A stretch of 38,522 bases of DNA from Thermoplasmata archaeon (GTDB taxonomy: Archaea > Thermoplasmatota > Thermoplasmata > RBG-16-68-12 > JAGMCJ01), in assembly GCA_023130895.1 (NCBI GenBank), contig JAGMAI010000030.1, positions 1 to 38,522 of the forward strand, written 5' to 3'. A model generated the notes under the pieces. That model searched no databases and was not told where the DNA came from. It worked only from the letters and a program-made list of their open reading frames with translations. Below are positions 26,014 to 37,945 of the stretch, piece by piece; the stretch's first letter is position 1; every line of letters starts with the position of its first letter. The position numbers and the translations under genes are program-made.

Positions 26014-26361
26014 TTATCTTGATAGGACGTCGACGGCTTTCCAGTCGCCTCCGAAGTCCTTGGTGACGCCTGAGGCCAGCTGGAACCTGACTCGAAGCCT
26101 GCCATTCTCGAAGAAGATGTAGGCGTTCCTGAGTTGCGAAAGATAGAGACTGATCCGCTTCCCTCTCTGCGTGAGGGCCCTTTCAACACACTTTATCAGT
26201 CCGGCTTTCTCCAGCATGTGGATTCTTCGGTACGTAGCAGCGATTGGAATCCCGTACTCCCTGCTGAGATCAATCGCGCTCTTGGGTTTCTTGAATGTCG
26301 CAACAAGGATTCTTGCTGCGTATTCGTCCGTTATCAGTCGTGATGCTTCCAAAGGATCCAT
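26014..26361 (-). CDS. Winged-helix (ArsR-like) transcription regulator, paralog 1
   Basis: TDEYAARILVAT..PKSA.DLS..YGIPIAATYRRI..LE.AGLI; GGAGG SD before ATG 26361. Confidence 0.88.
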   Translation of the reverse strand: MDPLEASRLITDEYAARILVATFKKPKSAIDLSREYGIPIAATYRRIHMLEKAGLIKCVERALTQRGKRISLYLSQLRNAYIFFENGRLRVRFQLASGVTKDFGGDWKAVDVLSR

Positions 26362-26425
26362 CTTCTTTCCTCCTGACCTCAATATTCCAATCCCCCACGA
26401 CCGTATATATAACGCAACGGGACGA

Positions 26426-26441
26426 GTATCATGGCTGATTC
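26426..26441. promoter_or_regulatory. Palindromic operator GTATCA-N4-TGATTC upstream of the wHTH paralog 1 TATA box
   Basis: Matches TTATCA-N4-TGATAA; minus-strand TTATATAT at about 26405-26412. Confidence 0.7.
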
Positions 26442-26454
26442 TCAATCGTAATAA

Positions 26455-26997
26455 TCAGCCGCCTATTACGTCCGCGTTTCTCTCCAGAAGAGCTAGCTCC
26501 TTCGGTTCAAAGGCCCGCGAGTCTATCGAGACGAGGAACAGGGCCTTCTTCTGCATCACGATCTCGTTCACGTACTCTATGAACTTCAGGATCCTCGGGA
26601 AGTCGTTGTTGATCATCAGATACTCGAGCCCGTCGAGGAGAATGGCTGACTTGCCACCCTTGTCCATGAAGTTGCTGATGAGGTTCGTGAGGCTCCCGAG
26701 GTTGTGGGGGTCGACATAGTCCCTGCCGAGCGTGGTGGAGAGCCATATCACCTTCATCCCATCCCGCCCGCGCTTCCTCGGTATGTGGTCCGGATGCCTC
26801 CTTGTGATGTAGAGGCCCGCGTAGCCGTCATCCATCAGCTGGGTGAGGTACTCGAGCGCTCTCTCGTGCCTCCGCTCGTGAAGGAAGTACGAGTGCCCCT
26901 CCTTGAGGACTTCTTGCCCTTTGCCCAGGAATATGTTTCGGAAGAGCTCGTCCGTCGCGTTGTCTATGCTCAACACTAGCAAGGGCAGCATTCCCAA
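26455..26997 (-). CDS. DUF835-family (inactive KaiC/RecA-fold) protein
   Basis: GLYITRRHP, VIWLS, ILLDGLEYL.INNDF..ILKF, ELALLERN. True start may lie downstream of the TTG at 26997. Confidence 0.85.
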   Translation of the reverse strand: MGMLPLLVLSIDNATDELFRNIFLGKGQEVLKEGHSYFLHERRHERALEYLTQLMDDGYAGLYITRRHPDHIPRKRGRDGMKVIWLSTTLGRDYVDPHNLGSLTNLISNFMDKGGKSAILLDGLEYLMINNDFPRILKFIEYVNEIVMQKKALFLVSIDSRAFEPKELALLERNADVIGG

Positions 26998-27051
26998 TCA
27001 ATCCTCGCTTCTTGGATTACCTCTCATGGGTTCTTATACATTCTGCAATCA

Positions 27052-27067
27052 ATATCAGGAATGATAC
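27052..27067. promoter_or_regulatory. Palindromic operator ATATCA-N4-TGATAC between the divergent DUF835 and wHTH-TPR genes
   Basis: About 12 bp upstream of minus-strand GTATAAG (27033-27039). Confidence 0.7.
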
Positions 27068-27138
27068 TCTGGTCATGTTCTGGACCCGAGCTGTGAGCAT
27101 GCGAAAACACTAAATCAAAGGCGACTGATACGACCCTT

Positions 27139-28476
27139 ATGATGCTCACCGCCTTGGAGAAGCCGACGGGCACCTTGAGAATCCTCGCGTACGTCCATCA
27201 GAACGAACGCGGGACTATCTCTGACTTCTACAGAAAGGTCGGGATAAACCAGGAATCCGCCTATTCCGCCCTGAGGAATCTCCTGCAGCTGGGCCTGATC
27301 TACGAGAAGGAGGAGGGCAAGTTCCCCTTCAGGAAGTTCTACTTGCTCACAAGCAAGGGGGAGCAGATCGCGGAGAAGCTGTCGTCCATAGAGGAAACGC
27401 TGACCGACACGGTATACGGCTACTATCACAGGCTCGAGGAGCTGGAGGCAGCGCCTGAGGCTCCTGAGAACCTTGCTGCCAGGCTCGAGATGATGCTCAA
27501 GATCCAGGATGTCTGCTTCGCGACCGGCGAGTGGGATTCCTGCATGGAGTACTGCGGGAAGTCGCTGGACCTCGCGCAGAGGTTGGATGACAAAGCCGCG
27601 CAGCTGAAGATCTTCAGAGATGTTGGGTGGATACACGAGAGGAGAAATGACTGGGATGCGGCCCGGAAGAACTTCGAGAGCGGCCTTGGGTTGGCGAGGG
27701 AGACGGGCGATTTGTCCGCCATGGCCAGCATATTCTACGACCTGGGGGCCATCCACGAGAGGAATGGAGAGTACGGCCGAGCGTTGGAGTTCTTTGACAA
27801 GTCAAGGCAAGCATCACAAGACGCCAAGAATGACTGGAATCTGGCAAGAGCTCTCTACGCCTTCGGGCGCGTGGAGGCTCAGAGAGGGAACTACCAGAAG
27901 TCCATTGGGTACATGGAGAAGTCCATCGGGATGCTCGAGGAGATCGGTGACCTGAGCGAGCTGGCCAAGGTCTGCACCGGAATGGGGGCCACGTGGTTCT
28001 ACCTGGACGACATGGACAAGACGATAGAGTACCACGAGAAGTGCATACGGACCGCCGAGAAGCTGGGGGATGCGACGGGGATCGGATATGGCCTGTCCAA
28101 CGCTGCCGAGGCCTACGCGCTGAAAGGCGACACGAAGAAGGCTTTTGAGTACCTTGAGAGGGCGCTCCTCATCTTCGAGAAGCTCAACGAGAGGATGATG
28201 ATTTCATCCGTGTACTCCCACTACGGTCAGACCCATCGACTCAGAGAGGAATGGAAGGAGTCGGAGGAGTACTTCAGCAAGAGCATCGCCCTGCTGGAAG
28301 AGCTCAATCTGCCCTACAACATGGCCGATGCCCACTACAAGTTCGGCGTCATGTACAAGGAGAAGGGTGAGCGGGACAACGCCGTGGAACACCTCTCCAA
28401 GGCGCACGAGATCTTCGAGAAGATCGGAAACAAGAGCATGATGGGGAAGGTGGCCGGTCTGAGAAACGGTCTATAG
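27139..28476 (+). CDS. N-terminal winged-HTH plus TPR-repeat transcription regulator
   Basis: wHTH (LRILAYV..GTISDF...SAYSALRNLLQLGLI...YLLTSKG) followed by about eight TPR repeats (YDLGAIHERNGEYGRALEFF etc.). Confidence 0.88.
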   Translation: MMLTALEKPTGTLRILAYVHQNERGTISDFYRKVGINQESAYSALRNLLQLGLIYEKEEGKFPFRKFYLLTSKGEQIAEKLSSIEETLTDTVYGYYHRLEELEAAPEAPENLAARLEMMLKIQDVCFATGEWDSCMEYCGKSLDLAQRLDDKAAQLKIFRDVGWIHERRNDWDAARKNFESGLGLARETGDLSAMASIFYDLGAIHERNGEYGRALEFFDKSRQASQDAKNDWNLARALYAFGRVEAQRGNYQKSIGYMEKSIGMLEEIGDLSELAKVCTGMGATWFYLDDMDKTIEYHEKCIRTAEKLGDATGIGYGLSNAAEAYALKGDTKKAFEYLERALLIFEKLNERMMISSVYSHYGQTHRLREEWKESEEYFSKSIALLEELNLPYNMADAHYKFGVMYKEKGERDNAVEHLSKAHEIFEKIGNKSMMGKVAGLRNGL

Positions 28477-28941
28477 CTAGACCAGCTCCGCCGGGAGCCA
28501 TGCCTGAGGCCAATCCTGGAAGTCCAGCGGGATAATGGCCTGTTCGTACTGAGGCCAGTCCTGATCGCTCAGCTCGATGACGAGCTCGCCCCAACCCTGG
28601 GGCCAGTCCTGATAGAAGACGAGCACATAGTCGTCATCCCCAAGCACCGGGATCAGAACCTCTTCTTCCTGCGATGCCGTTCGCAGCAGACCTCTTGCGG
28701 CCTTGGCTCCATCTGGCATCACAATGACAGGGATGTGTATGACATCCGGGTCCGACGTCGACAGGTTGATCGTGACATAGTCCTCGTAAACGTCCTGGAC
28801 CACCATGCCGATGTTCCCGTTGTCGAGGCTGTCAACGGGTACGGCTGTCCAGGCCCCGCCGGACGCTGTGGGTTGAAACGCTAGAGCAATCGATAGTACA
28901 ACGAGTGCAGTTGTTAGCTCCCTCTTCCTCGCCCACATCAC
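28477..28941 (-). CDS. Secreted precursor-like protein with three C-terminal QDWPQ repeats
   Basis: Signal peptide (RKRE, hydrophobic core, TASG); QDWPQ encoded at 28597-28611, 28549-28563 and 28504-28518; minus-strand TATAAATA at about 28963-28970. Confidence 0.75.
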   Translation of the reverse strand: MMWARKRELTTALVVLSIALAFQPTASGGAWTAVPVDSLDNGNIGMVVQDVYEDYVTINLSTSDPDVIHIPVIVMPDGAKAARGLLRTASQEEEVLIPVLGDDDYVLVFYQDWPQGWGELVIELSDQDWPQYEQAIIPLDFQDWPQAWLPAELV

Positions 28942-29164
28942 CCTTTTCTATGTTTGAGGCGGTATTTATAGATATCGAGGTTCGAAACGAGTTCCCTATG
29001 GCCTCCGACACATGATTCTGCTTGTCTGCGCAGTCGAAGTGCAGTCGCGCGAGAAGATCATGAGCGGACTGGACATTAGCCTCATCCTACCGTTTTATGT
29101 CCGTGCTATTATTCCGTATACCGAAAAACGATAACCTTTTATAATGTTCATGAGATTCATGGAT

Positions 29165-29486
29165 GTTGCGGCTTCACGGGAGGTTCAAGTCTTTGCGAGG
29201 AAGCCGCAAGATAGGAGAGGGGTCCGGTAGATGCCTCGCATGATGAGAACTCGGCCAACAAGCTTGCAATCCTTGAGGGAGTCGGTGACGACTCTTTCAG
29301 TCGCTCCCGCGAAGACACCCGCTTTTTTGGACGCAGAGGGTCGAAGACCCTACCAATCCAGTGGGAGTGAATCGGATTCGGGCGCCTTTACCCTCCAATC
29401 TGTGTGTTTGATCCCCGCCCTGACTGGTGATTGCATCCCCAGGATGGCCGACTGAATCTCACCCAAACCGGACCCCTCAGTGTTTT
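29165..29486 (+). ncRNA. Candidate large structured non-coding RNA of unknown class
   Basis: TTTTATAA at 29137; 10-bp hairpin 29166-29175/29200-29209; perfect 12-bp long-range stem 29217-29228/29467-29478 enclosing nested stems. Confidence 0.6.
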
Positions 29487-29544
29487 GCGTCCCTAGCACC
29501 TGTCTAGCAAACGTTTATTTCTCGCGAGAGTTTAACCTCGCACG

Positions 29545-30267
29545 ATGACCGCCCGCCTGGGTATTATCACGGGTTCTAAAATGGAGATATCCCGAATCCT
29601 GGAAGGGACCAGGGAGGAAAGGGTCGGTACGCCCTTTGGCGATCCCTCTTCGTCCGTTCAGATAGGTCTGATCGAGGAGAAGGAGGTCGCCTTCCTGTAC
29701 CGACACGGAGAAAGACACAGGCATCCTCCGCACAGGGTGAACCATCACGCGAACATACACGCCCTTTCGGACGCGGGCGTCACGAGGATCATCGGTGCAT
29801 CTTCAGTCGGCAGCATGAGGCAGGACATACGGCCCATGGATTTCGTCATCCCCTCGGACTTCGTGAGCTTCTGGAACATCCCAACATTCCACGACGAGGA
29901 CGTCGTTCACGTCACTCCCGTTCTCGATCCGGAACTCAGGAAGAGTCTCGTTGATTGCATCAGGGATCTGGGGTACACCGCCCATGATGGCGGTGTCTAC
30001 ATCCAAACAACTGGACCCAGGCTCGAGACCAAGGCCGAGATCCGCATCTTCAAGGAGTTCGGAGACCTGGTGGGCATGACGATGCCGTCCGAAGCCACTC
30101 TGGCGGTGGAGAAGGGCATCGCCTACGCGAGCATATGCTGCGTTGACAACTACTGCCATGGCATGGCGGACGAGGACCTCTCCTACGACGTGATTCTCGA
30201 GCATCAGATGAGGAATGCCGAGAGGCTGTTCAACATCATCACGAGGGTCATCGAGGTGCTTGCTTGA
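29545..30267 (+). CDS. mtnP: MTAP-family purine nucleoside phosphorylase, probably S-methyl-5'-thioinosine phosphorylase
   Basis: TPFG.PS, RHG..H..PPH.VN, GPRLETKAE, VGMT..EA.LA; VDNY (Asn) in place of the adenine-specific TDYD motif. Confidence 0.88.
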   Translation: MTARLGIITGSKMEISRILEGTREERVGTPFGDPSSSVQIGLIEEKEVAFLYRHGERHRHPPHRVNHHANIHALSDAGVTRIIGASSVGSMRQDIRPMDFVIPSDFVSFWNIPTFHDEDVVHVTPVLDPELRKSLVDCIRDLGYTAHDGGVYIQTTGPRLETKAEIRIFKEFGDLVGMTMPSEATLAVEKGIAYASICCVDNYCHGMADEDLSYDVILEHQMRNAERLFNIITRVIEVLA

Positions 30268-31520
30268 GCATTCTCATCGAGGACGTCCTTCTCGATGGAG
30301 ATCGCAAGAACATACGCGTGGAGGGGAACAGGATCACCTCCTTGGATTCGGATGAGGGCGCCGACACGGTGATCCATGGAAATGGAAAGGCCGCCATCCC
30401 CGGGTTTGTGAACACCCACACCCACGCGGCCATGAGCCTTTTTCGTGGATACGCCGACGACATGCCTCTCCAGGACTGGCTGAGCAACAAGATCTGGCCT
30501 CTCGAACGGCACCTGAAACCTGAGCACATATACTGGGGGACCAAGCTCGCGTGCCTGGAGATGATCAAGTCTGGCACAACCTGCTTCAATGACATGTACT
30601 TCTTCATGGAGGAAACCGCCAAGGCTGCTGAGGAGATGGGCATCAGGGCCGTCCTGAGCGAAGGATTCACTGATCTACTGGATCCCGACGCGGGAAAGGA
30701 GAGATTCCAGAGCTCCATCTCCCTGGTTCAGTCGATTCGGTCGATGAGGAACGATATGATCGTCCCCGCCCTCGGACCCCATGCGATGTATACGGTGTCT
30801 CCCGAGAGCCTTCAGATGATTTCAGAATACGCGGAGAAGGAGGACCTTCTGGTCCACTTCCACCTATCCGAGACGGAGGATGAGGTGAACGCGTGCATCG
30901 AGGAGCACGGGAAGAGGCCAGTTGAATTCCTTGAGGAGATAGGATTCCTGAACCCTCGTCTTGTTGCCGCTCACTCTATCTGGCTGAACAAGGAGGAGAT
31001 CGGCCTCCTCAGTAAACACGATGTCAAGGTGTCCCATAATCCCGTTTCAAACATGAAGCTCGCGGTTGGGAAGGCCATACCTTACAGGGAGATGAAGGAA
31101 GCGGGGCTTCTCGTATCTCTGGGGACCGATGGTTGCGCGTCGAACAACACGCTGGACATGTTCGAGACCGTGAAGTTCGCGGCGCTCTATCAGAAGGCGT
31201 TCACGGGGGATCCGACAATCCTTCCCGCCCAAGAGGCGGTCGCCCTGGCAACGGAGAACGGTGCCAGAGCCCTTGGAATCGATGCAGGGAGAATCTCTCC
31301 CGGAAAGCTGGCGGACATCGTCCTCGTCGATTTGAGGGCGCCGCAGCTTCATCCTGGTCACAACCTCGTGTCGGATCTGGCGTACGCTGCGAACGGATCG
31401 TGCGTTGACACCGTGATCTGCGACGGGAAGATACTGATGCAGAACAGAAAGATCGAGGGGGAGGATGAGATACTCGAAAGGGCAAACGAAGCGGCCCTGG
31501 ACCTGGTTGGGAATGAATAG
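30264..31520 (+). CDS. mtaD: 5'-methylthioadenosine/S-adenosylhomocysteine (5'-deoxyadenosine) deaminase
   Basis: PGFVNTHTHAAM, DMYF, PHA.YT, HFHLSET, HNPVSNMKLA, GTDG.ASNN. Confidence 0.9.
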   Translation: MSILIEDVLLDGDRKNIRVEGNRITSLDSDEGADTVIHGNGKAAIPGFVNTHTHAAMSLFRGYADDMPLQDWLSNKIWPLERHLKPEHIYWGTKLACLEMIKSGTTCFNDMYFFMEETAKAAEEMGIRAVLSEGFTDLLDPDAGKERFQSSISLVQSIRSMRNDMIVPALGPHAMYTVSPESLQMISEYAEKEDLLVHFHLSETEDEVNACIEEHGKRPVEFLEEIGFLNPRLVAAHSIWLNKEEIGLLSKHDVKVSHNPVSNMKLAVGKAIPYREMKEAGLLVSLGTDGCASNNTLDMFETVKFAALYQKAFTGDPTILPAQEAVALATENGARALGIDAGRISPGKLADIVLVDLRAPQLHPGHNLVSDLAYAANGSCVDTVICDGKILMQNRKIEGEDEILERANEAALDLVGNE

Positions 31521-31531
31521 GAAGCGATCAT

Positions 31532-32092
31532 ATGTTGGAGAAGCTGAAGAAATCCATGGACGAGTGCCCGGTCGTGAAGTTCGGTGACTATGAGTACTTC
31601 GTGCACCCCATAACAGATGGCATTCCGCTCGGGGACCCTGAGGTCCTGGAGGAAGTGACGGAGGCCATGATCAGTGTGGCGGATCTCGACTGCGACAAGA
31701 TAGTCACAGCGGAGTCGATGGGCTTTCCCCTGGCAGCGTCGCTCTCTCTGGCAACGGGCATCCCATATGTCTTCATCAGGAAGAGGGAATACGGGCTTCC
31801 CGGTGAGATTTCAGTTAAGCAGATTACTGGATACTCGGGCTCGGATATGTTCATCAACTCCATCGACGAAGGAGACAGGGTCGTCTTCGTTGACGATGTC
31901 CTGAGCACGGGCGGGACCCTAAGGGCGATAGTCCAGGCGTTGAGAACTCTCAAGGCGGTTCTGATCGACATCGTGATAGTGTTCAACAAGAACCCGGACA
32001 AGGAGAAGCTCGAGAAGGAATTGGATATGAGAATCCGGACGCTTCTTGACGTTCGTGTGATGGACGGAAAGGTCGTGTTCACTCAGGGCTAA
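31532..32092 (+). CDS. hpt: Archaeal-type hypoxanthine/guanine phosphoribosyltransferase
   Basis: YFVHPITDG, IRKREYGLPGE, QITGYS, PRPP-binding VDDVLSTGGT. Confidence 0.88.
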   Translation: MLEKLKKSMDECPVVKFGDYEYFVHPITDGIPLGDPEVLEEVTEAMISVADLDCDKIVTAESMGFPLAASLSLATGIPYVFIRKREYGLPGEISVKQITGYSGSDMFINSIDEGDRVVFVDDVLSTGGTLRAIVQALRTLKAVLIDIVIVFNKNPDKEKLEKELDMRIRTLLDVRVMDGKVVFTQG

Positions 32093-32142
32093 GAATCCCC
32101 CCTGAAAATGCCTTTCTGTGCATTTGCCAGCTCACTTCGAGC

Positions 32143-32158
32143 TTATCAGTTCTGATAA
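32143..32158. promoter_or_regulatory. Perfect palindromic operator TTATCA-GTTC-TGATAA upstream of the KaiC-like operon
   Basis: 15 bp upstream of CTTAATA (32174). Confidence 0.8.
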
Positions 32159-32215
32159 TCAGTGCGAAATCCACTTAATAGCGTGGCTCAATTCTTTTGA
32201 CTAGGCTGGGTCCTA

Positions 32216-32911
32216 ATGGTATACGAAACTGAAGTAATCGCCATGAGGGACGTCATATCCCAAATGATGAAGACCTCGCAGAACAGGCTCCTAGTGAACA
32301 CTGACAGGGTCTACTTGGCGAAAACCAACCTCATCACGCTTAAGTCCCTTCTAGAGGAGAGAGGGCCCAGAGGAATTTTCTTGTCCATCAACCGGCCCTA
32401 TCACTACATGGCCCACCTGCTGAGGATCCACAAGGTCGACTACGAAGAGATGCTCTTCATCGACGCCGTCTCCAAGATATCTGGGGAGAGGAAGATGGAG
32501 TGGAAGCAGACCACGTTCTTGGACAGCCCGTTCCAGATTCCCAAGATATTCGAGGACCTGCAGCTGATCGGGAAGACCCCGGACGGCTCTACATCCATCA
32601 TCAAGATCATCGAGAGCGACTTCGTGGTGATAGACGACATTTCCGCGATCTTCCACTACAATGAGCTGGGAACCGGAAAGCGCTTCCTGAAGGAGTTCCT
32701 CGATGCTGTCGCGTCCAATCCGAAGTCCTTCACTGCGTTCGCGATTGACCGGGAGACCCAGAGGGATGTCTACGAGTTCCTGGCCGACAGCTCCGACAGA
32801 TTGGTGGACATGGGCAACGCAGCCTTCATGGAGGTTCCCAAGGAGCTCGAGGAAGAGCACGCCCCCATGGCACGCCCGTCAGACGGCGAGGGAGGGATGA
32901 TTCATGAATGA
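32216..32911 (+). CDS. Degenerate KaiC/RecA-fold protein lacking Walker A
   Basis: GIFLSINRPY, FIDAVS, FVVIDDISAIFHYN pattern of inactive RecA-superfamily partners; overlaps the next gene. Confidence 0.7.
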   Translation: MVYETEVIAMRDVISQMMKTSQNRLLVNTDRVYLAKTNLITLKSLLEERGPRGIFLSINRPYHYMAHLLRIHKVDYEEMLFIDAVSKISGERKMEWKQTTFLDSPFQIPKIFEDLQLIGKTPDGSTSIIKIIESDFVVIDDISAIFHYNELGTGKRFLKEFLDAVASNPKSFTAFAIDRETQRDVYEFLADSSDRLVDMGNAAFMEVPKELEEEHAPMARPSDGEGGMIHE

Positions 32912-33587
32912 CGCGATAATAAGACGGTCCAGCGGAACGCCTGGCCTGGATGAGATGATATCTGGAGGTTTCCCATTCCCCTCGGTTCTCCTCGTCGCTG
33001 GGAGTGCCGGGACGGGAAAGACGACGTTCGCTCAGAAGTTCCTCTTCGAGGGTGCCAAGAACGGAGAGCAGTGCATATTCTTCACGACGCTCAGCGAGCC
33101 CACCCAGTGGATGCTGAGATTCTCCTCCCAGTTCGAGTTCGTCGATCCAGAGTACTTCGGCAGGGAAATAATCTATATCGACATAGGGCACGACATAAGG
33201 GAGAGCGGCCCTCATGAGATCCTCGACATCCTGGACGAGAAGATCGCCGCGATCATGCCACAGAGGATAGTCATCGATCCGATCACCGTCGTTTGCGACT
33301 TCATCGAGAACAACTACAGGACATTCCTGTTCGATCTGGTCACCAGGCTGAAGAACTGGGATTGCGTGACGGTCCTGACGGGCGAGGTCGCTCCCGGTCA
33401 GCTTTATCCGCCGGAGATCGCCCATGCAGTGGATGGGATCGTCCTGCTCATGTACACCCATGAAGGCGAGGAGAGACGCAAGTACATCGAGGTCCTCAAG
33501 ATGAGGGGAACGAACCACGTCACCGGAAAGCAGTCAATAGACATCACAACCGAAGAGGGCATAGTCGTCCTCAAATCGAAGTTCTAG
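32904..33587 (+). CDS. Single-domain KaiC/RAD55-family ATPase
   Basis: SGTPGLDEMISGG, Walker A GSAGTGKT, Walker B IVIDP, DGIV, EVLKMRGT. Confidence 0.92.
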   Translation: MNDAIIRRSSGTPGLDEMISGGFPFPSVLLVAGSAGTGKTTFAQKFLFEGAKNGEQCIFFTTLSEPTQWMLRFSSQFEFVDPEYFGREIIYIDIGHDIRESGPHEILDILDEKIAAIMPQRIVIDPITVVCDFIENNYRTFLFDLVTRLKNWDCVTVLTGEVAPGQLYPPEIAHAVDGIVLLMYTHEGEERRKYIEVLKMRGTNHVTGKQSIDITTEEGIVVLKSKF

Positions 33588-33614
33588 CGGGCCTGGGGAG
33601 TGGGCCAGAGGGTC

Positions 33615-33652
33615 ATTATCACACGTGATAATTGGAAAACAAGATGCTTATA
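33615..33652 (+). promoter_or_regulatory. Operator ATTATCA-CACG-TGATAAT plus TATA (CTTATA) driving a short downstream unit
   Basis: Perfect inverted repeat at 33615-33632; TATA at 33647, the same 15-bp gap as the 32143 site. Confidence 0.8.
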
Positions 33653-33674
33653 CTCTGCGCCTGCTGTTTCAGAG

Positions 33675-33762
33675 AGCCAACAGATAACGATGACCCCTCC
33701 TCCGAGGAAAGACGGAGGCCCATTTTCTTGGGACCTTTGCTTTCCTCACCCCCCTTTTTTTT
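33675..33762 (+). ncRNA. Candidate sRNA: CCCCUCCUCC head - hairpin - C6-U8
   Basis: CCCCTCCTCC at 33694; GAGGAAAG/CTTTCCTC stem 33704/33740; T8 at 33755-33762; own operator and TATA; same architecture as the 25893-26013 modules. Confidence 0.6.
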
Positions 33763-33792
33763 CTGTGCAACGGGTGAGGACGGGCTAAGGAG

Positions 33793-33927
33793 CTACTCGA
33801 GATCCTTCTTCCTCGTGTCCTTGAAAACGATGACGTTGAGGCTTATGACCTCTTTTTCTTCGTCCTCCTCCTTTGGAAAAATCACGCTTTTGCCGTTGGG
33901 AAGGATTTTGTGGAATCTTAGTTTCAT
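33793..33927 (-). CDS. Unannotated 44-aa protein MKLRFHKILPNGKSVIFPKEEDEEKEVISLNVIVFKDTRKKDLE
   Basis: Open frame from ATG 33927 to TAG 33793, preceded by minus-strand TTTAAA (33958-33963) and an operator at 33977-33992. Confidence 0.6.
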   Translation of the reverse strand: MKLRFHKILPNGKSVIFPKEEDEEKEVISLNVIVFKDTRKKDLE

Positions 33928-33976
33928 CCTATCAGTTAATCGTAGAGAGCCGGTTTATTTAAACTCAGTCTCACGG

Positions 33977-33992
33977 TTATCGAGAGTGATTC
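33977..33992. promoter_or_regulatory. Operator TTATCG-N4-TGATTC
   Basis: 13 bp upstream of the minus-strand TTTAAA. Confidence 0.6.
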
Positions 33993-33995
33993 TCA

Positions 33996-34334
33996 TCACA
34001 GAATCTCAATCGTCTCCCAATCCTGCGTCACTGCCTGCTCGTCCAGAGTGAGAACGAACTTGAGCTGGATGCCGTTGTCCTCGATGTGAATGTGCCCCTT
34101 GTTGAGGTTTGCCTCGAAGAGCCTCACGACTCTCCCTCGCCGGGTAATGACCCTCTTCCTCACCGACAAGAGCCCCGCCTTCATCAGCAGGTTTATCTTC
34201 CTGTAGCACGAGGCGATCGGGATCGAGTACTTCCCGCAAAGCTCGTACGCAGATCTCGGTGACAGAAACGTGGCAACAAGGATGTGCTTCACGTCATCAT
34301 CGCGCAGCAGTTTCAGCTTCTGATGGATGTTCAT
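33996..34334 (-). CDS. Winged-helix regulator, paralog 2
   Basis: DDDVKHILVAT..PRSA.EL..KYSIPIASCYRKI..L..AGLL; ATG 34334 follows a TATA-like TTATTT at about 34356-34361; degenerate operator TTATCA-N4-AGAGAA at 34379. Confidence 0.85.
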   Translation of the reverse strand: MNIHQKLKLLRDDDVKHILVATFLSPRSAYELCGKYSIPIASCYRKINLLMKAGLLSVRKRVITRRGRVVRLFEANLNKGHIHIEDNGIQLKFVLTLDEQAVTQDWETIEIL

Positions 34335-34406
34335 CAGAGAATGTATTAGCGTGACAAATAATGGCACTTTCGACGATTTTATCAAGAGAGAGAATCAGAA
34401 CGGATA

Positions 34407-34751
34407 CTACTCCTTTGAATCCACTCCCGTCCAGTCCCCGCCGAAGTCCTTGATCACACCGGTGGTCAAGTGGAAGCGGACCCTGAGCCTCCCGCCCTCG
34501 AAGAAAACATAAGCGTTCTTGAGCCTCGAGGTGTAGAGGTTCTTCCTCTTCCCCTTCTGCGTCAGAATACGCTCCACGCATTCCAAGAGCCCTATCTCCT
34601 CAAGGGCCCTGATCTTTCGATAGCAGGCAGCAATGGGTATCCCATATTTCCTGCTTATCTCTTGGGCGCTCAACTTCCTCTTGAAGGTCGCCAAGAGGAT
34701 CTTCGCAGTGTATTCATCCGTCAGCAATTGAGAGGCTTCTAGCGGTGTCAT
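34407..34751 (-). CDS. Winged-helix regulator, paralog 3 (closest to paralog 1)
   Basis: TDEYTAKILLAT...YGIPIAACYRKI...RLRVRFHLTTGVIKDFGGDW. Confidence 0.9.
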   Translation of the reverse strand: MTPLEASQLLTDEYTAKILLATFKRKLSAQEISRKYGIPIAACYRKIRALEEIGLLECVERILTQKGKRKNLYTSRLKNAYVFFEGGRLRVRFHLTTGVIKDFGGDWTGVDSKE

Positions 34752-34841
34752 TTCATACCCTCCCTGATACCCCCTCAGTGAGAAGTATTCAGGTACGGAT
34801 ATAGCTTGTATGACTCTTTGTATTTAAAGACTTTCTTGGGA

Positions 34842-34878
34842 TTATCAGCAAGGAGAACACAATTATCAGGACTGATAG
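34842..34878. promoter_or_regulatory. Tandem operators TTATCA-N4-GGAGAA and TTATCA-N4-TGATAG, 21 bp apart
   Basis: Proximal site is 13 bp upstream of minus-strand TTTAAA (34823-34828). Confidence 0.7.
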
Positions 34879-35220
34879 CTACCTGGTCGGGATGGGGATT
34901 TTGATCCACCTGTTGTTGATGTCCTCGTCGTAGTTGAACTCGAGCCTGATTCTGAAATGCCCTTCCTGGAACATGATGCATGCGCTCTTGAGCTGTGACT
35001 TGTAGAGCTTCATGTTCTTTCCCTTGGAGGTCGTGACGATCTTCTCGACCTCGACCAATCCAGCGTCCTCGAGATCATGCATCTTGCGGTAGCAAGCGGC
35101 TATGGGGATATCGTACTTGTCGCTGATCTCCTGAACTGACCGCGGGTAGAAGTACGTCGCAACAAGAATCCTCTCTGCGTAATCATCAGTCAATAGTCTA
35201 GAGATTGCCTTCTCCCGCAT
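34879..35220 (-). CDS. Winged-helix regulator, paralog 4
   Basis: TDDYAERILVAT..PRSVQEIS.KYDIPIAACYRKM..LE.AGLV; ATG 35220 fits a leaderless start from TATA at about 35244-35249 (alternative ATG 35232). Confidence 0.88.
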   Translation of the reverse strand: MREKAISRLLTDDYAERILVATYFYPRSVQEISDKYDIPIAACYRKMHDLEDAGLVEVEKIVTTSKGKNMKLYKSQLKSACIMFQEGHFRIRLEFNYDEDINNRWIKIPIPTR

Positions 35221-35264
35221 TGCGATACTCATTCTCTACTTGATTTAAGCACATTTCTATGCAA

Positions 35265-35280
35265 TTATCAACGATGATAC
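35265..35280. promoter_or_regulatory. Operator TTATCA-ACGA-TGATAC
   Basis: About 15 bp upstream of minus-strand CTTAAA. Confidence 0.75.
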
Positions 35281-35301
35281 CCATACACCCGCTCTGGGGG
35301 G

Positions 35302-36816
35302 CTAGATTATCGGTACTAGCACCGCCTGCGGATAGCCCTTCGAGTGATCGAAGGAAAGGGCGTGGAGCTCGGTGTAGGGTTTCTCGCCGTAGAGCACAAC
35401 TGAACCGTCTATGTTCTCGATTTTCAGGTGAGTATGGGCGAGATTCGCGAGCGGTGCTGTAGAAGAGGTCGTTGACGTAACGATTCCTATGAAGATGTCC
35501 TTCGCCTTTCTGATCGACGACATGTGACCTGCCATGTCCTCTATCACCTCGTGGCCGAAGACCGCCTCCAGGGTGTCGAACCCCATCAGGGACAGGATCG
35601 GACGCTCCGTCTGCGAGAGATGATACTCGATGTTGCTCCATTTCAGCTCGTTGTCGATGTCAGAACCCTCCATTGGGAGTGCTATCTTGGAACCCTCCAC
35701 AGAGGTTGTGGCGGACGGTTCGAACACGCGCATGCACCTCTCGAACGCTTCCTGGCCGACAAAAGGCATGATCTCGTCCCTCACCATCTCCGAGGAGGCC
35801 TTCTTCTCGGGGACGAACGCAACTCCCCTGCCAAGCGAGATGAAGTTCGACAAGAGCGAGGTCTTGATGAGGTCAGAGTACAGCGTGTCGACATTCCCGC
35901 CTATCTCCACAGCGACTATCGTACCCTTCTTGAACCCGCCTATCAGAGCGTCGAGCTGGTCGCTTCCCGTCGAGATCCAGTTCTCGGATATGTCGGGCAT
36001 GGGTTCCCAACTCGACTTCTCACGCGGGATCTCGATCTTCTCGAAGCCAAAGGTCTTGATTCTCCCCCCGTCCAGACTGTAGGCACATTTGTGCTGCCTA
36101 ATCTCCGTGCCGCGAAGCTTCTCGATCTTCATTATCCTCAGCCGTCTGCCTTCGTGTTCCTCGCTCGTGAACGTGATGACCCCGTCCCCAAGATAATCGA
36201 GCCGCGTCTCCCCAGGGCTCTCCAGCACATACAGGACATCGGACGAGGAGGTCTCGACCAGGTCCTTCTGGAGCGTGTTCATCAGCTTCGAGGGGTGAAT
36301 CCCGTATCTCTCCGCCAGTGCGTTGATGCTATCTATCAGTATGAGGCTCTTCTCTGGGAGGGTGTCCTCGACCACATCATATGCCCTGTCGATCTCGGGG
36401 AGGTCCGATCCAAGGTCCAGGATGAGGCTGGTCTCCGTGACCTCGCCCTCGCTTATCTTGTCGTAGATGCTGCTCTCGTCCTCCTCACCCATCTCTATCC
36501 GGCCCTCGAGCTTCTTGAGCTCCGTTCTGTCGACCTTGCCTTCCTCCTCCTCAGGCCTTTGGTCGAACCTCGTCGGGGCGATCCGCTTCTTGAACTCGAC
36601 TCTGTCCTTGAGCCAGGGGAACTGGTTGTACAAGGAATGATCGCTCACCCTGATTGACATGTAGTACGAGTTCTCGACGCTCCCCAGCTCCTCTGTCAGC
36701 TGCAGGGCGAACGTAGTCTTGCCCGTTCCCGCAGCACCCTTGACTATCAAGGAATGTCCGCCTGGCCCTTTGAAGAAGTCTAGCAGTGCATCAGGAATAC
36801 CCTTCTCTTCTTTCAT
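35302..36816 (-). CDS. GvpD-like two-domain KaiC/RecA-superfamily ATPase
   Basis: SLIVKGAAGTGKTTFAL, LILIDSI, LDYLGDGVI, IEKLRG; second domain STGSDQLDALIGG with a degenerate P-loop. Confidence 0.85.
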   Translation of the reverse strand: MKEEKGIPDALLDFFKGPGGHSLIVKGAAGTGKTTFALQLTEELGSVENSYYMSIRVSDHSLYNQFPWLKDRVEFKKRIAPTRFDQRPEEEEGKVDRTELKKLEGRIEMGEEDESSIYDKISEGEVTETSLILDLGSDLPEIDRAYDVVEDTLPEKSLILIDSINALAERYGIHPSKLMNTLQKDLVETSSSDVLYVLESPGETRLDYLGDGVITFTSEEHEGRRLRIMKIEKLRGTEIRQHKCAYSLDGGRIKTFGFEKIEIPREKSSWEPMPDISENWISTGSDQLDALIGGFKKGTIVAVEIGGNVDTLYSDLIKTSLLSNFISLGRGVAFVPEKKASSEMVRDEIMPFVGQEAFERCMRVFEPSATTSVEGSKIALPMEGSDIDNELKWSNIEYHLSQTERPILSLMGFDTLEAVFGHEVIEDMAGHMSSIRKAKDIFIGIVTSTTSSTAPLANLAHTHLKIENIDGSVVLYGEKPYTELHALSFDHSKGYPQAVLVPII

Positions 36817-36868
36817 TTAACACCCTGCGTCAGTAAGGGCGAATCCCTTTTAGATGTTTTTCTCTTCG

Positions 36869-36884
36869 TTATCACGAGTGAGAA
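36869..36884. promoter_or_regulatory. Operator TTATCA-CGAG-TGAGAA upstream of the GvpD-like gene
   Basis: About 13 bp upstream of a weak minus-strand TATA-like ATCTAAAA. Confidence 0.65.
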
Positions 36885-36949: not shown

Positions 36950-37945
36950 TCACTTCCTGATGGCCTCGAAGGCCTTCCACGCAACGTTCACGTCGTTCTT
37001 ATGGAAGAGGAGCTCCGCCGCCTCGGCCTCCGTGCACCACTTGTACTTGTCGAACCTGAACTCCGGCTCTGGCTTTCCCTTGGGAGCACGCGCGAGGAAG
37101 TAGGTGACCTTCTTCCGGTAGTTGATATCGTCCTGGGGCCAGTAGTAGGAGTACTCGATGTCGCACAGCTCCCGCTCGATTCTTATCGACCAGAGCCCCG
37201 TCTCCTCCCTCATCTCTCTCAAGGCAGCGTGTTCCAGGCTCTCACCTGTCTCAACGTGACCCTTCGGGAGACACCAGAGTCTCTCGCTCTTCTTGCGGAT
37301 GAGAAGGACCCTTCCCTTCCTGTGGATGACGCCTCCGGCGGCCCGGATGGAGACATCTCTCTTCCCCCTCCTAGCGGGCCCACTAATGACCCTAGTGTCC
37401 TCGGATTCTACGAACTCCTTCGCCCTCTTCAGGTCTGACGTCAGATGCTTCAGCAGCCGTCTGTTGTAGAGGACCGCCGCGGGGTGATATGTCGAGATCA
37501 GTGGCCTTCCTCTGTATTCCCCAGTTTCGAGCCGAGCCTCGGACACCTTCGCCGGCCTGCCCGCCAGGACCCTGTGCGCGAACGATCCCAGCGCCACGAC
37601 CGCGTAGGGATCCACCGCATCGATGTAGGCTTCCAGATGGGGTCGACATTCCTCTATCTCGTCCTTTCTGGGATTCCGATTCCTCGGCGGACGGCACCTG
37701 AGCACGCTCGTGATGAAGATGCCTTCCCTCTTCAGACCCGCCTTCTCGAGCGATTCGTTCAGGATCTTTCCCGCCGCTCCGACGAAGGGGCGACCTTGCT
37801 TGTCCTCCTCCCTCCCAGGGGCCTCCCCTACAAGGAAGATGCGCGCGTTCCTGTCTCCCTCACCTGGAACCGCCCTCTCGCGTGTCTTCCATAGCCTGCA
37901 CTTCCTGCATCGCCTTACCTGCCTCGCGAGTTCTTCCAGACTCAT
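36950..37945 (-). CDS. Family-4 uracil-DNA glycosylase fused to a C-terminal Nudix hydrolase
   Basis: C..C.L Fe-S ligands, GEAPG..ED..GRPFVG, CRPP.NR.P, YHPAA; Nudix box GHVETGESLEHAALREMREETGL. Confidence 0.92.
   Translation of the reverse strand: MSLEELARQVRRCRKCRLWKTRERAVPGEGDRNARIFLVGEAPGREEDKQGRPFVGAAGKILNESLEKAGLKREGIFITSVLRCRPPRNRNPRKDEIEECRPHLEAYIDAVDPYAVVALGSFAHRVLAGRPAKVSEARLETGEYRGRPLISTYHPAAVLYNRRLLKHLTSDLKRAKEFVESEDTRVISGPARRGKRDVSIRAAGGVIHRKGRVLLIRKKSERLWCLPKGHVETGESLEHAALREMREETGLWSIRIERELCDIEYSYYWPQDDINYRKKVTYFLARAPKGKPEPEFRFDKYKWCTEAEAAELLFHKNDVNVAWKAFEAIRK

Follow-up and report, generated by a model that had tools for sequence, protein, structure and literature searches.

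The question raised by this stretch of archaeal DNA (38,522 nucleotides of a Thermoplasmata archaeon, contig JAGMAI010000030.1 of assembly GCA_023130895.1, hereafter the window) is why a single palindrome, TTATCA-N4-TGATAA, recurs in front of genes as different as four small winged helix-turn-helix (wHTH) proteins, a DUF835 protein, a KaiC-like operon, a GvpD-like ATPase, a 44-amino-acid (aa) open reading frame (ORF) and a predicted small RNA, and which protein reads it. A preliminary description of the window had proposed that one activator, either the wHTH paralogs or a wHTH-TPR protein, switches on a KaiC-type signalling network with feedback. Our results suggest that this palindrome serves as operator for a regulon that extends over the whole genome and is conserved in this Thermoplasmata lineage; taken as a whole, with binding by the small wHTH proteins and activation included, this is the best explanation we can offer and the one towards which we lean, if only somewhat.

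The genome analysed, in which the window is contig C153, comprises 2.06 Mb in 228 contigs at 56.4% G+C and is fragmented and 84% complete; its genes were called with a simple and crude caller of our own (1837 genes, 88.9% coding, 11.3% of the genome intergenic). Within the window, the exact palindrome occurs twice (32143 and 33616) against none in 100 shuffles, and the 11 matches with at most two mismatches compare with an average of 0.48 in shuffles, never exceeding 2. The genome as a whole contains the exact palindrome 12 times, together with 22 copies that have a single mismatch and 54 that have two. When the spacer was varied from 0 to 15, all 12 exact palindromes were found at four nucleotides and none at any of the 15 other lengths, while the core TATCA-Nk-TGATA occurred 23 times at k=4 and 0–2 times at other k, and the reversed order of half-sites and direct repeats gave 0–2 occurrences each. 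A weight matrix built from this genome's own sites retrieved 128 sites of at least 14 bits against 19 in a first-order Markov null (62% with their centre in intergenic DNA) and 50 of at least 18 bits against 2.3 (84% intergenic), counts that are partly circular because the matrix was trained on this same genome. The exact-match and spacer controls are free of this circularity.

The position of these sites relative to the promoter is rigid. A model of the archaeal core promoter, consisting of the B recognition element and the TATA box (BRE/TATA), was learnt from 867 upstream regions without use of the palindrome. Its consensus, CGAAAGCTTTATATA, peaks genome-wide 40 nt before start codons, so that most transcripts appear to be leaderless or nearly so, and a second peak at 50 nt indicates that a minority of genes seem to have a short leader. 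The 128 sites were then scanned in both orientations for a BRE/TATA 15-mer of at least 8 bits at offsets of 0–49 from the palindrome centre: boxes starting at +14 account for 32 site-orientations, those at +15 for seven and those at +13 for three, and every other offset is represented 0–4 times. With the offset of +14, 6 bp separate the end of the palindrome from the BRE and 13 nt separate it from the start of TATA, which sharpens the distance of 12–17 bp upstream of TATA estimated in the preliminary description. At 42 of the sites with a strong box, this gap leaves the palindrome clear of BRE/TATA and of the start site, which is the position of an archaeal upstream activating sequence, and the palindrome centre would be expected near −51 if TATA is centred near −26. 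Start codons cluster 50–80 nt from the palindrome centre. Defining a strict module as a site of at least 12 bits with a box of at least 5 bits at +13 to +15, we found 58 operator–promoter modules genome-wide, 46 of which have a called gene, and 66 genes in strict-module units by simple operon chaining. The observation made in the window is confirmed, and the regulon is not a local one, with at least 58 strict modules across the genome.

The matrix also recovered all the positions named in the preliminary description, that of 34379 being degenerate as claimed, and four of these positions prove to be double, with second sites at 26439, 33990 and 34392 (13 nt from 26426, 33977 and 34379, respectively) and at 34863 (21 nt from 34842). 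Genome-wide, 10 pairs of sites stand exactly 13 nt apart, with an overlap of 3 nt, 3 pairs stand at 30 nt, and other distances occur once each; in the cases read, the extra copy stands on the side away from the promoter. As neighbouring operators with a 13-nt period overlap by 3 nt, their junction makes a second small palindrome (TGAT-A-ATCA), and this spacing suggests side-by-side dimers on different faces of the helix. Arrays with the 13-nt period include 26426/26439 in the window and, elsewhere in the genome, those on contigs C20 (6917/6930/6943), C196 (6015/6028) and C186 (1709/1722 and 7981/7994).

The sites are conserved in relatives. All eight genomes of the genus hold 7–14 exact copies, a second genus of the order holds 19 and 6, and the other families hold 0–2, while a reversed-pattern control gave none in any of the 41 genomes searched; in the class, 73 of 151 genomes hold at least one exact copy. 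With the sole exception of 26331, every site of the window is kept in place in orthologous loci at 74–92% protein identity, with changes in the 4-nt spacer. The promoter of the KaiC operon, compared in six orthologous sequences, illustrates this footprint, since both half-sites and BRE/TATA are kept, whereas the upstream sequence has fully diverged and the spacer has diverged as well. At a larger distance, a GvpD-like gene lies directly upstream of wHTH-4, followed by wHTH-3 in one orientation, in 10 of 10 loci from seven families; the wHTH-3 homologue is 75–86% identical in all ten, across the order. Each of these loci carries 2–10 matrix sites of at least 12 bits, compared with about 0.3 expected per 8 kb in a Markov null, and most of them, as read from two coordinate tables, fall in gaps upstream of GvpD-like or wHTH genes. 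Outside the genus, homologues of a Ras-like GTPase of the regulon and of the GvpD-like ATPase are also preceded by exact sites with a strong box at offset +14 or +15, both in the second genus and in another family of the class; of the 16 sites examined there, 7 carry such a box. Conservation upstream of orthologs, the lack of which the preliminary description had named as a ground for refutation, is thus recovered, with sites in place and variable spacers.

The features of the window that bear on the regulon are collected in Table 1.

Table 1. Operators, genes and predicted transcripts of the regulon in the window (positions in the window; bits are matrix scores for operators, promoter-model scores for BRE/TATA and Pfam scores for proteins; offsets are from the palindrome centre; L035 to L039 are orthologous loci).
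Feature	Position	Strand	Observations
wHTH-1 operators	26426-26441 and 26439-26454	-	17.7 and 18.9 bits, overlapping, 13 nt apart; strict module, BRE/TATA at +13; kept in L035, L037
TATA box of wHTH-1	~26404-26412	-	read from the sequence
wHTH-1, small ArsR/Phr-like winged-helix protein	26014-26361	-	HTH_20 22.2 bits (under cut-off); aligns with the three paralogs, same recognition helix
DUF835 operator	27052-27067	-	21.3 bits; BRE/TATA 9.1 bits at +14, minus side only; kept in L035, L037
DUF835 protein	26455-26997	-	PF05763 124.7 bits (cut-off 33.1)
wHTH-TPR protein	27139-28476	+	divergent from DUF835; TPR_12 136 bits, weak N-terminal wHTH matches
KaiC operon operator, exact	32143-32158	+	23.4 bits; BRE/TATA 15-mer ~32166-32180 at +15, 7.4 bits
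KaiC operon, two genes	32216-33587	+	231-aa protein (32216-32911) and single-domain KaiC-like ATPase (32904-33587)
Small-RNA unit operator, exact	33616-33631	+	21.1 bits; BRE/TATA 15-mer ~33638-33652 at +14, 7.4 bits; no called gene; kept in six orthologous sequences
Predicted small RNA	33675-33765	+	~90 nt, conserved core of ~70 nt from ~33687, 18-bp hairpin, terminal T-run; ends predicted
44-aa gene operators	33977-34005	-	17.6 and 14.1 bits, overlapping, 13 nt apart; BRE/TATA 9.5 bits at +14; kept in L035, L037, L038, L039
44-aa microprotein gene	33793-33927	-	protein kept in four orthologous loci; third-position changes, in-frame 6-nt indel
wHTH-2 operators, degenerate	34379-34407	-	15.2 and 12.0 bits, overlapping, 13 nt apart
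wHTH-2	33996-34334	-	aligned with paralogs; matched by the wHTH-4 query at E 1.6e-18
wHTH-3 operators	34842-34878	-	14.1 and 18.7 bits, 21 nt apart; proximal site with BRE/TATA 13.1 bits at +14
wHTH-3	34407-34751	-	HTH_20 29.6 bits (cut-off 27)
wHTH-4 operator	35265-35280	-	21.4 bits; BRE/TATA at +14
wHTH-4	34879-35232	-	HTH_20 26.9 and TrmB 24.9 bits, each just below cut-off; structure and dimer models made on this protein
GvpD-like ATPase operator	36869-36884	-	20.5 bits; BRE/TATA 10.5 bits at +14
GvpD-like P-loop ATPase, 504 aa	35302-36816	-	GvpD_P-loop (PF07088) 62.3 bits (cut-off 24); GvpD_bR2 (PF20440) 43.5 bits (cut-off 27.9)

Sites were thus found before each of the units to which an operator had been attributed, and the gene identities proposed from the sequence (DUF835, wHTH-TPR, KaiC-fold, GvpD-like and small wHTH proteins) agree with Pfam. 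Also in accordance with the preliminary description, the housekeeping genes of the window lack the operator: there is no site of at least 11 bits in the 5 kb between 27052 and 32143, which include an mtnP-like nucleoside-salvage operon with genes for a PNP/MTA-type phosphorylase, an amidohydrolase and a phosphoribosyltransferase, and the first 26 kb contain only two weak matches at that threshold (10729 and 15846). The additional match reported at 26331 is present within the wHTH-1 coding region, but it scores only 11.3 bits, which is weak, and the orthologous loci yielded no counterpart of at least 11 bits. The KaiC-like ATPase matches PF06745 with 149.2 bits (cut-off 26.6) in one stretch of its 227 aa and is therefore a single-domain KaiC-like ATPase rather than a two-domain clock protein. 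The 231-aa product of the first gene of this operon was considered as a diverged KaiC and rejected, as it shows neither BLASTP similarity to the KaiC-like protein nor a Pfam match. DUF835 is listed as ‘iKaiC’, an inactivated KaiC-like domain, in PMC5847659. Outside the regulon, a single 331-aa ORF of the window (36950-37945, minus strand) joins uracil-DNA glycosylase superfamily and NUDIX domains.

The genes behind these operators point to a signalling network. A Pfam scan of 61 of the 63 first-pass targets (the two longest were left out) retrieved eight Ras/Roc/Arf-type GTPases, four KaiC-like proteins, TPR proteins, three proteins with AsnC_trans_reg, and the wHTH proteins, together with single enzymes and envelope proteins, some of them simply neighbours on the far side of a palindrome. 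Enrichment was calculated under the strict rule, for 46 regulon genes against a background of 1837 genes. It is strongest for the Ras-like GTPases, of which 7 out of 17 possess a strict module (p = 6e-8), followed by the small wHTH proteins (3 of 4, the fourth, wHTH-2, having a degenerate site; p = 6e-5), the AsnC-type proteins (3/6, p = 3e-4), the KaiC-like proteins (5/31, p = 8e-4, with eight KaiC-like genes at contig ends that could not be judged for the module), DUF835 (3/10, p = 0.002) and small TPR proteins (4/32, p = 0.007). The network initially proposed was of KaiC type; the Ras-like GTPases, not the KaiC-like proteins, are the most enriched family. The wHTH-TPR family shows no enrichment (0 of 15 members with a strict module, p = 1) and, in the window, the plus side of site 27052, which faces the wHTH-TPR gene, has no BRE/TATA at the fixed offset, so this protein is not supported either as a member or as the regulator.

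Several observations concern the individual target families. The 17 Ras/Roc/Arf-type small GTPase paralogs are encoded in a 2-Mb genome (e.g., contigs C13 1738-4188, C169 1082-1903 and C226 2309-2947), four of them clustered on C13; single Rab-like copies are reported for Thermoplasmatales-type genomes in PMC4915359. The 164-aa AsnC-type proteins match Pfam AsnC_trans_reg only, in two stretches, and their alignment displays two tandem RAM-like halves without a helix-turn-helix (HTH), which is not the layout of Lrp/AsnC feast/famine regulatory proteins. They were considered as binders of the operator and rejected on this ground; their genes are targets, and some of the strongest sites stand in their promoters. 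In homologous AsnC-type loci, an operator lies 54–103 nt upstream in 20 of 30 cases, at least two of the 10 misses being at contig ends. The tandem-RAM proteins of this genome (C135 12551-13045, C39 10945-11439 and C228 2347-2841) form two sub-types with 29% identity, both with strong operators, and the operator is kept before tandem-RAM homologues in several families of the order. Two 240-aa paralogs (C222 97-819 and C109 5865-6593) sit behind the best-scoring operators, with unusually long leaders of ~95–100 nt from site centre to start codon. Giant proteins of 1750–2600 aa (C79 2867-9982, C212 253-8061 and C135 15890-21148), caught by the KaiC-like and TPR profiles, resemble fused signalling proteins, and none has a strict operator. 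Finally, fructose-bisphosphatase was tried as a target by analogy with TrmBL1 and discarded: on the plus side of its site (C66 3427, 16.0 bits) BRE/TATA is missing at the fixed offset, which places it outside the strict set.

The most probable readers of the palindrome are, in our view, dimers of the small wHTH paralogs themselves, judging from sequence comparison and structural modelling. All four small wHTH promoters carry operator sites, in agreement with the feedback that had been suggested, which follows from regulators having the operator in their own promoters. The paralogs align with a common recognition helix, I-P-I-A-A/S-C/T-Y-R-K/R, in which P, I, A, Y and R do not vary among 40 family members, conservation of A, C and K being at least 90%; because the four share one recognition helix, homo- and heterodimers would all read the same operator. 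Moreover, no other DNA-binding family was found in the regulon throughout the families of the order that we examined. It is found in 41 of 41 genomes of the order and 83 of 151 of the class, and by hand count an exact copy of the palindrome is present in 55 of 82 class genomes with the wHTH versus 17 of 68 without it, an association that is overstated because related genomes are not independent. Ten of these 17 wHTH-less genomes belong to one AT-rich family (exact copies in 10 of 15 genomes, wHTH in none of 15). This family was considered as a counter-example and set aside, since the 14 copies read in three of its genomes lie in surroundings of 28–42% G+C, with 8 of 14 in long open frames and 1 of 14 with BRE/TATA at the offset, and look like chance occurrences.

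The structural predictions are compatible with such a dimer. Most database homologues of the small wHTH carry a precomputed PF12840 (HTH_20) match. The AlphaFold2 model of wHTH-4 (mean predicted local distance difference test, pLDDT, 90.2) shows a winged helix with three extra strands, and its Foldseek matches are Phr (2p4w), which is the best, PH1932, SrnR, SmtB, CzrA and HlyU. A homodimer model scored 0.78 versus 0.00 for the best of three controls, with runs agreeing in 100% of contacts and pLDDT of at least 89; in a benchmark, this mark was reached by 20 of 30 proteins solved as one-chain pairs and by 1 of 23 solved as single chains, counts that hold roughly, as our own alignment was used. 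The pass of the homodimer may reflect likeness to solved ArsR-family dimers. The modelled interface consists of helix 1 and strand 83–89 and leaves the recognition helix (residues 44–56) outside it, and the palindrome fits a two-fold dimer of this kind as modelled.

A bound dimer would, in the mechanism that we propose, help transcription factor B (TFB) and the TATA-binding protein (TBP) to bind. Activation is the most likely effect because the site abuts the BRE at a rigid distance without overlapping BRE/TATA or the start site, and we consider it probable. Archaeal activators such as Ptr2, TFB-RF1, EarA and the ara-box factor typically have their binding sites just upstream of the BRE, a position that the preliminary description had noted for Ptr2 and TFB-RF1, and act by recruiting TBP or TFB (PMC5512572). 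TrmBL1 activates with a site upstream of BRE/TATA (PMC4706686). The BRE/TATA scores of the regulon promoters are lower than those of the comparison set (median 8.6 versus 10.8 bits, p = 9e-4), although the latter also supplied most of the training data of the model and thereby biases the result.

Besides the circularity, relatedness and training bias mentioned with the respective counts, several points weigh against binding by the small wHTH or against activation. All six genomes of one family of the same order have the wHTH but no exact copy, although weaker matrix sites stand beside wHTH genes in the two loci read from that family, and in the class 27 of the 82 genomes with the wHTH have no exact copy. 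The degenerate operator of wHTH-2 does not qualify as a strict module, as the BRE/TATA at the fixed offset reaches less than 5 bits. Among contigs assembled from RNA libraries, some overlap the KaiC operon and the GvpD-like gene in part, one of them crossing the GvpD-like promoter and none lying over the small-RNA unit; being contigs only, they gave no start sites or levels and are not informative in this respect. The characterized relatives, Phr and ArsR/SmtB, are mostly repressors. The assignment of the binder, finally, is one of association.

These points must be considered in relation to the alternative explanations. The operator could be real but bound by another factor (a member of the wHTH-TPR family, one of the 240-aa proteins or the product of a gene elsewhere), the small wHTH genes being targets only. 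This idea draws on the two best-scoring promoters (C222 912, 26.5 bits, and C109 5763, 21.4 bits), which precede the paired 240-aa proteins with weak N-terminal wHTH matches (E 0.004–0.08), and on the wHTH-TPR gene being divergent from site 27052. Nevertheless, the 240-aa proteins form a narrow family, with 14 clusters among 5.8 billion proteins, whereas the operator spans the order and beyond, the strict modules are absent from the wHTH-TPR family, the AsnC-type proteins have no HTH, and none of these families shares with the small wHTH its constant presence in the regulon across the order; we therefore regard another binder as rather unlikely. The most radical alternative, that the matches are a dispersed repeat, the end of a mobile element or a compositional artefact without regulatory role, finds an echo in the AT-rich relatives, where exact copies do seem to arise by chance. 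In this genome of 56% G+C, however, only the 16 bp and BRE/TATA are common to the sites while their flanks differ, the reversed pattern is absent from all 41 genomes searched, and the sites, which stand in intergenic DNA at a constant offset from BRE/TATA, persist at orthologous promoters in spite of changing spacers, which makes an origin of this kind scarcely credible.

Assuming that the small wHTH proteins do bind, the same protein–operator pair might repress, or have a dual role, for instance if it extended from the 13-nt arrays across BRE/TATA or trapped TFB in an unproductive complex. Repression prevails in the closest solved relative (Phr, by computed fold match) and among ArsR/SmtB proteins, negative autoregulation is frequent in regulators whose own promoters bear their sites, and ten tandem pairs at exactly 13 nt suggest cooperative arrays. 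Yet the site never overlaps BRE/TATA or the start, its distance to the BRE is rigidly 6 bp, additional copies are stacked on the side opposite to the promoter, and the core promoters of the regulon are weaker than average. Archaeal repressors usually overlap the promoter or sit downstream (PMC5512572 and PMC4706686). Repression thus appears to us a possible but doubtful reading. The rigid spacing to the BRE and the large number of promoters could also indicate an extended core-promoter element for a specialized TFB or TBP paralog. A perfect two-fold palindrome with a strict N4 spacer and 13-nt tandems fits a dimeric HTH protein, while the asymmetric contact of TFB with the BRE does not suit palindromes or tandems, so that a core-promoter element seems very improbable.

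The unit at 33616 likely drives a small RNA, as judged from a conserved segment of ~70 nt ending in a T-run, from indels of 1–2 nt among orthologues that break the frame, so that the block is not coding, from a long hairpin and from the lack of any Rfam family (the sole match, U6atac at E 0.33 and below the gathering score, is due to chance). The pairs of the hairpin are kept, some through one-sided changes and none through compensatory ones. An unpaired, invariant C-rich stretch, CCCCUCCUCC, lies 5' of the hairpin. It is complementary to GGAGG-type ribosome-binding sites of leadered genes such as wHTH-1, whose start codon (ATG at 26361) comes after a Shine-Dalgarno-like GGAGG, and the predicted small RNA could therefore mask Shine-Dalgarno sequences. 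The 44-aa microprotein is both acidic and basic and has its own double operator. By tblastn, it adjoins wHTH-3 in 8 of the 10 loci from other families of the order. The possibility that it mimics the C-terminus of the wHTH was examined and rejected, as there is no detectable similarity to the wHTH family (hhalign probability 0.3%).

Together, these observations suggest how the network might be organized. The two-fold symmetric dimers of the four ArsR/Phr-like paralogs would bind the site, and the GvpD-like ATPase, with KaiC-like and DUF835 proteins, would probably modulate the amount or activity of these regulators; by analogy, the adjacency of the GvpD-like gene to the regulator genes suggests post-translational control of the regulator. 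The output would be a signalling set of Ras-like GTPases, small TPR proteins, tandem-RAM ligand-binding proteins, the small RNA and the microprotein. More tentatively, and with considerable doubt as to the whole, the four wHTH proteins could form homo- and heterodimers competing for one type of operator, stacked in overlapping 13-bp arrays by the BRE, and together be the master switch for signalling through a set of eukaryote-like components (~17 GTPases of the Ras superfamily, TPR scaffolds, ATPases of KaiC-like and GvpD-like type, RAM sensors, the microprotein and the small RNA with its anti-Shine-Dalgarno-like stretch). The GvpD-like ATPase might then set the level of the regulator as GvpD does for GvpE, and the core block (GvpD-like, wHTH-4, wHTH-3 and microprotein) would be ancestral to the order, the regulon having much expanded in two genera.

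Gene regulation in uncultured Thermoplasmata is almost unknown, and few functions have been assigned to KaiC-like ATPases and prokaryotic Ras-like GTPases. Here, the sequence alone yields a defined operator, a rigid promoter layout, about 60 target promoters and candidate regulators, all conserved across the order; defined in this way, the network can be tested directly with recombinant proteins, without culturing the organism. It would tie small GTPases, KaiC-like proteins and a GvpD-like ATPase into one transcriptional programme, and it offers a clean case of how archaeal activators might contact TFB/TBP at a fixed distance.

Literature searches on the motif, the regulon and Thermoplasmata small GTPases, which did not extend to supplementary files, retrieved no description of this operator or regulon. 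The work of Makarova, Galperin and Koonin (2017) on KaiC-like ATPases as archaeal signalling hubs reportedly deals with domain architectures and gene neighbourhoods. The target set itself has a precedent, since KaiC-like, DUF835 (inactivated KaiC) and TPR proteins are described as parts of one signalling network in PMC5847659 (citing the same authors).

Among regulators, TrmBL1 of Pyrococcus and Thermococcus, with its Thermococcales glycolytic motif (TGM, TATCAC-N5-GTGATA; PMC4706686), presents a similar operator: it is the palindromic site of a global archaeal wHTH regulator, with the near-identical half-site core TATCA, and the small wHTH proteins described here give near-threshold matches to Pfam TrmB. 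Nevertheless, the core is TATCA-N4-TGATA here and TATCA-N7-TGATA in the TGM; exact TGM copies were not found in this genome, where the N7 core occurs once. The proteins also differ, being 112–117 aa long (~115 aa) and having only a short beta region at their C-terminus instead of a sugar-binding domain, with signalling targets rather than sugar metabolism and a rigid position that is always upstream. By Pfam score (PF01978, 24.9 and 21.5 bits, both below the cut-off of 25.6) and by architecture, the small wHTH proteins are not members of the TrmB family. The closest relative by both profile (E 3.2e-5) and fold (Foldseek E 1.4e-5, query TM-score 0.65 over 98 columns) is Phr (PF1790, 2p4w), the heat-shock regulator of Pyrococcus furiosus, likewise an ArsR-type wHTH with a long wing. 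Phr is a repressor of ~200 aa with a C-terminal extension, with which the proteins described here share 21–22% identity, and the pairing of beta strand 83–89 and helix 1 in our modelled dimer is a further difference from it.

In the haloarchaeal GvpE/GvpD system, the site of the activator adjoins the BRE and GvpD lowers the amount of activator. The likeness resides in the gene for a GvpD-type P-loop ATPase, which adjoins that of the presumed regulator. In our case, this regulator would be a wHTH protein rather than of GvpE type, the neighbours of the ATPase are wHTH genes, and any action of it on the wHTH proteins would be a counterpart of that of GvpD on GvpE. With Ptr2, TFB-RF1, EarA and the ara-box factor, the palindrome shares its location immediately upstream of BRE/TATA, and the mechanism proposed for them, in which TBP or TFB is brought to a core promoter that is itself sub-optimal (PMC5512572), recalls the lower-scoring cores of the regulon. 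However, Ptr2 is of Lrp type, and EarA and TFB-RF1 belong to unrelated families, all acting at one or a few promoters, compared with at least 58 modules at one fixed offset here, where activation is presumed. From these comparisons, the palindrome, lying upstream of the BRE and recognized by wHTH dimers, would define a new regulon of a known type, unusual in its size, rigid geometry, overlapping 13-nt arrays, four co-specific paralogs and content of Ras-like GTPases.

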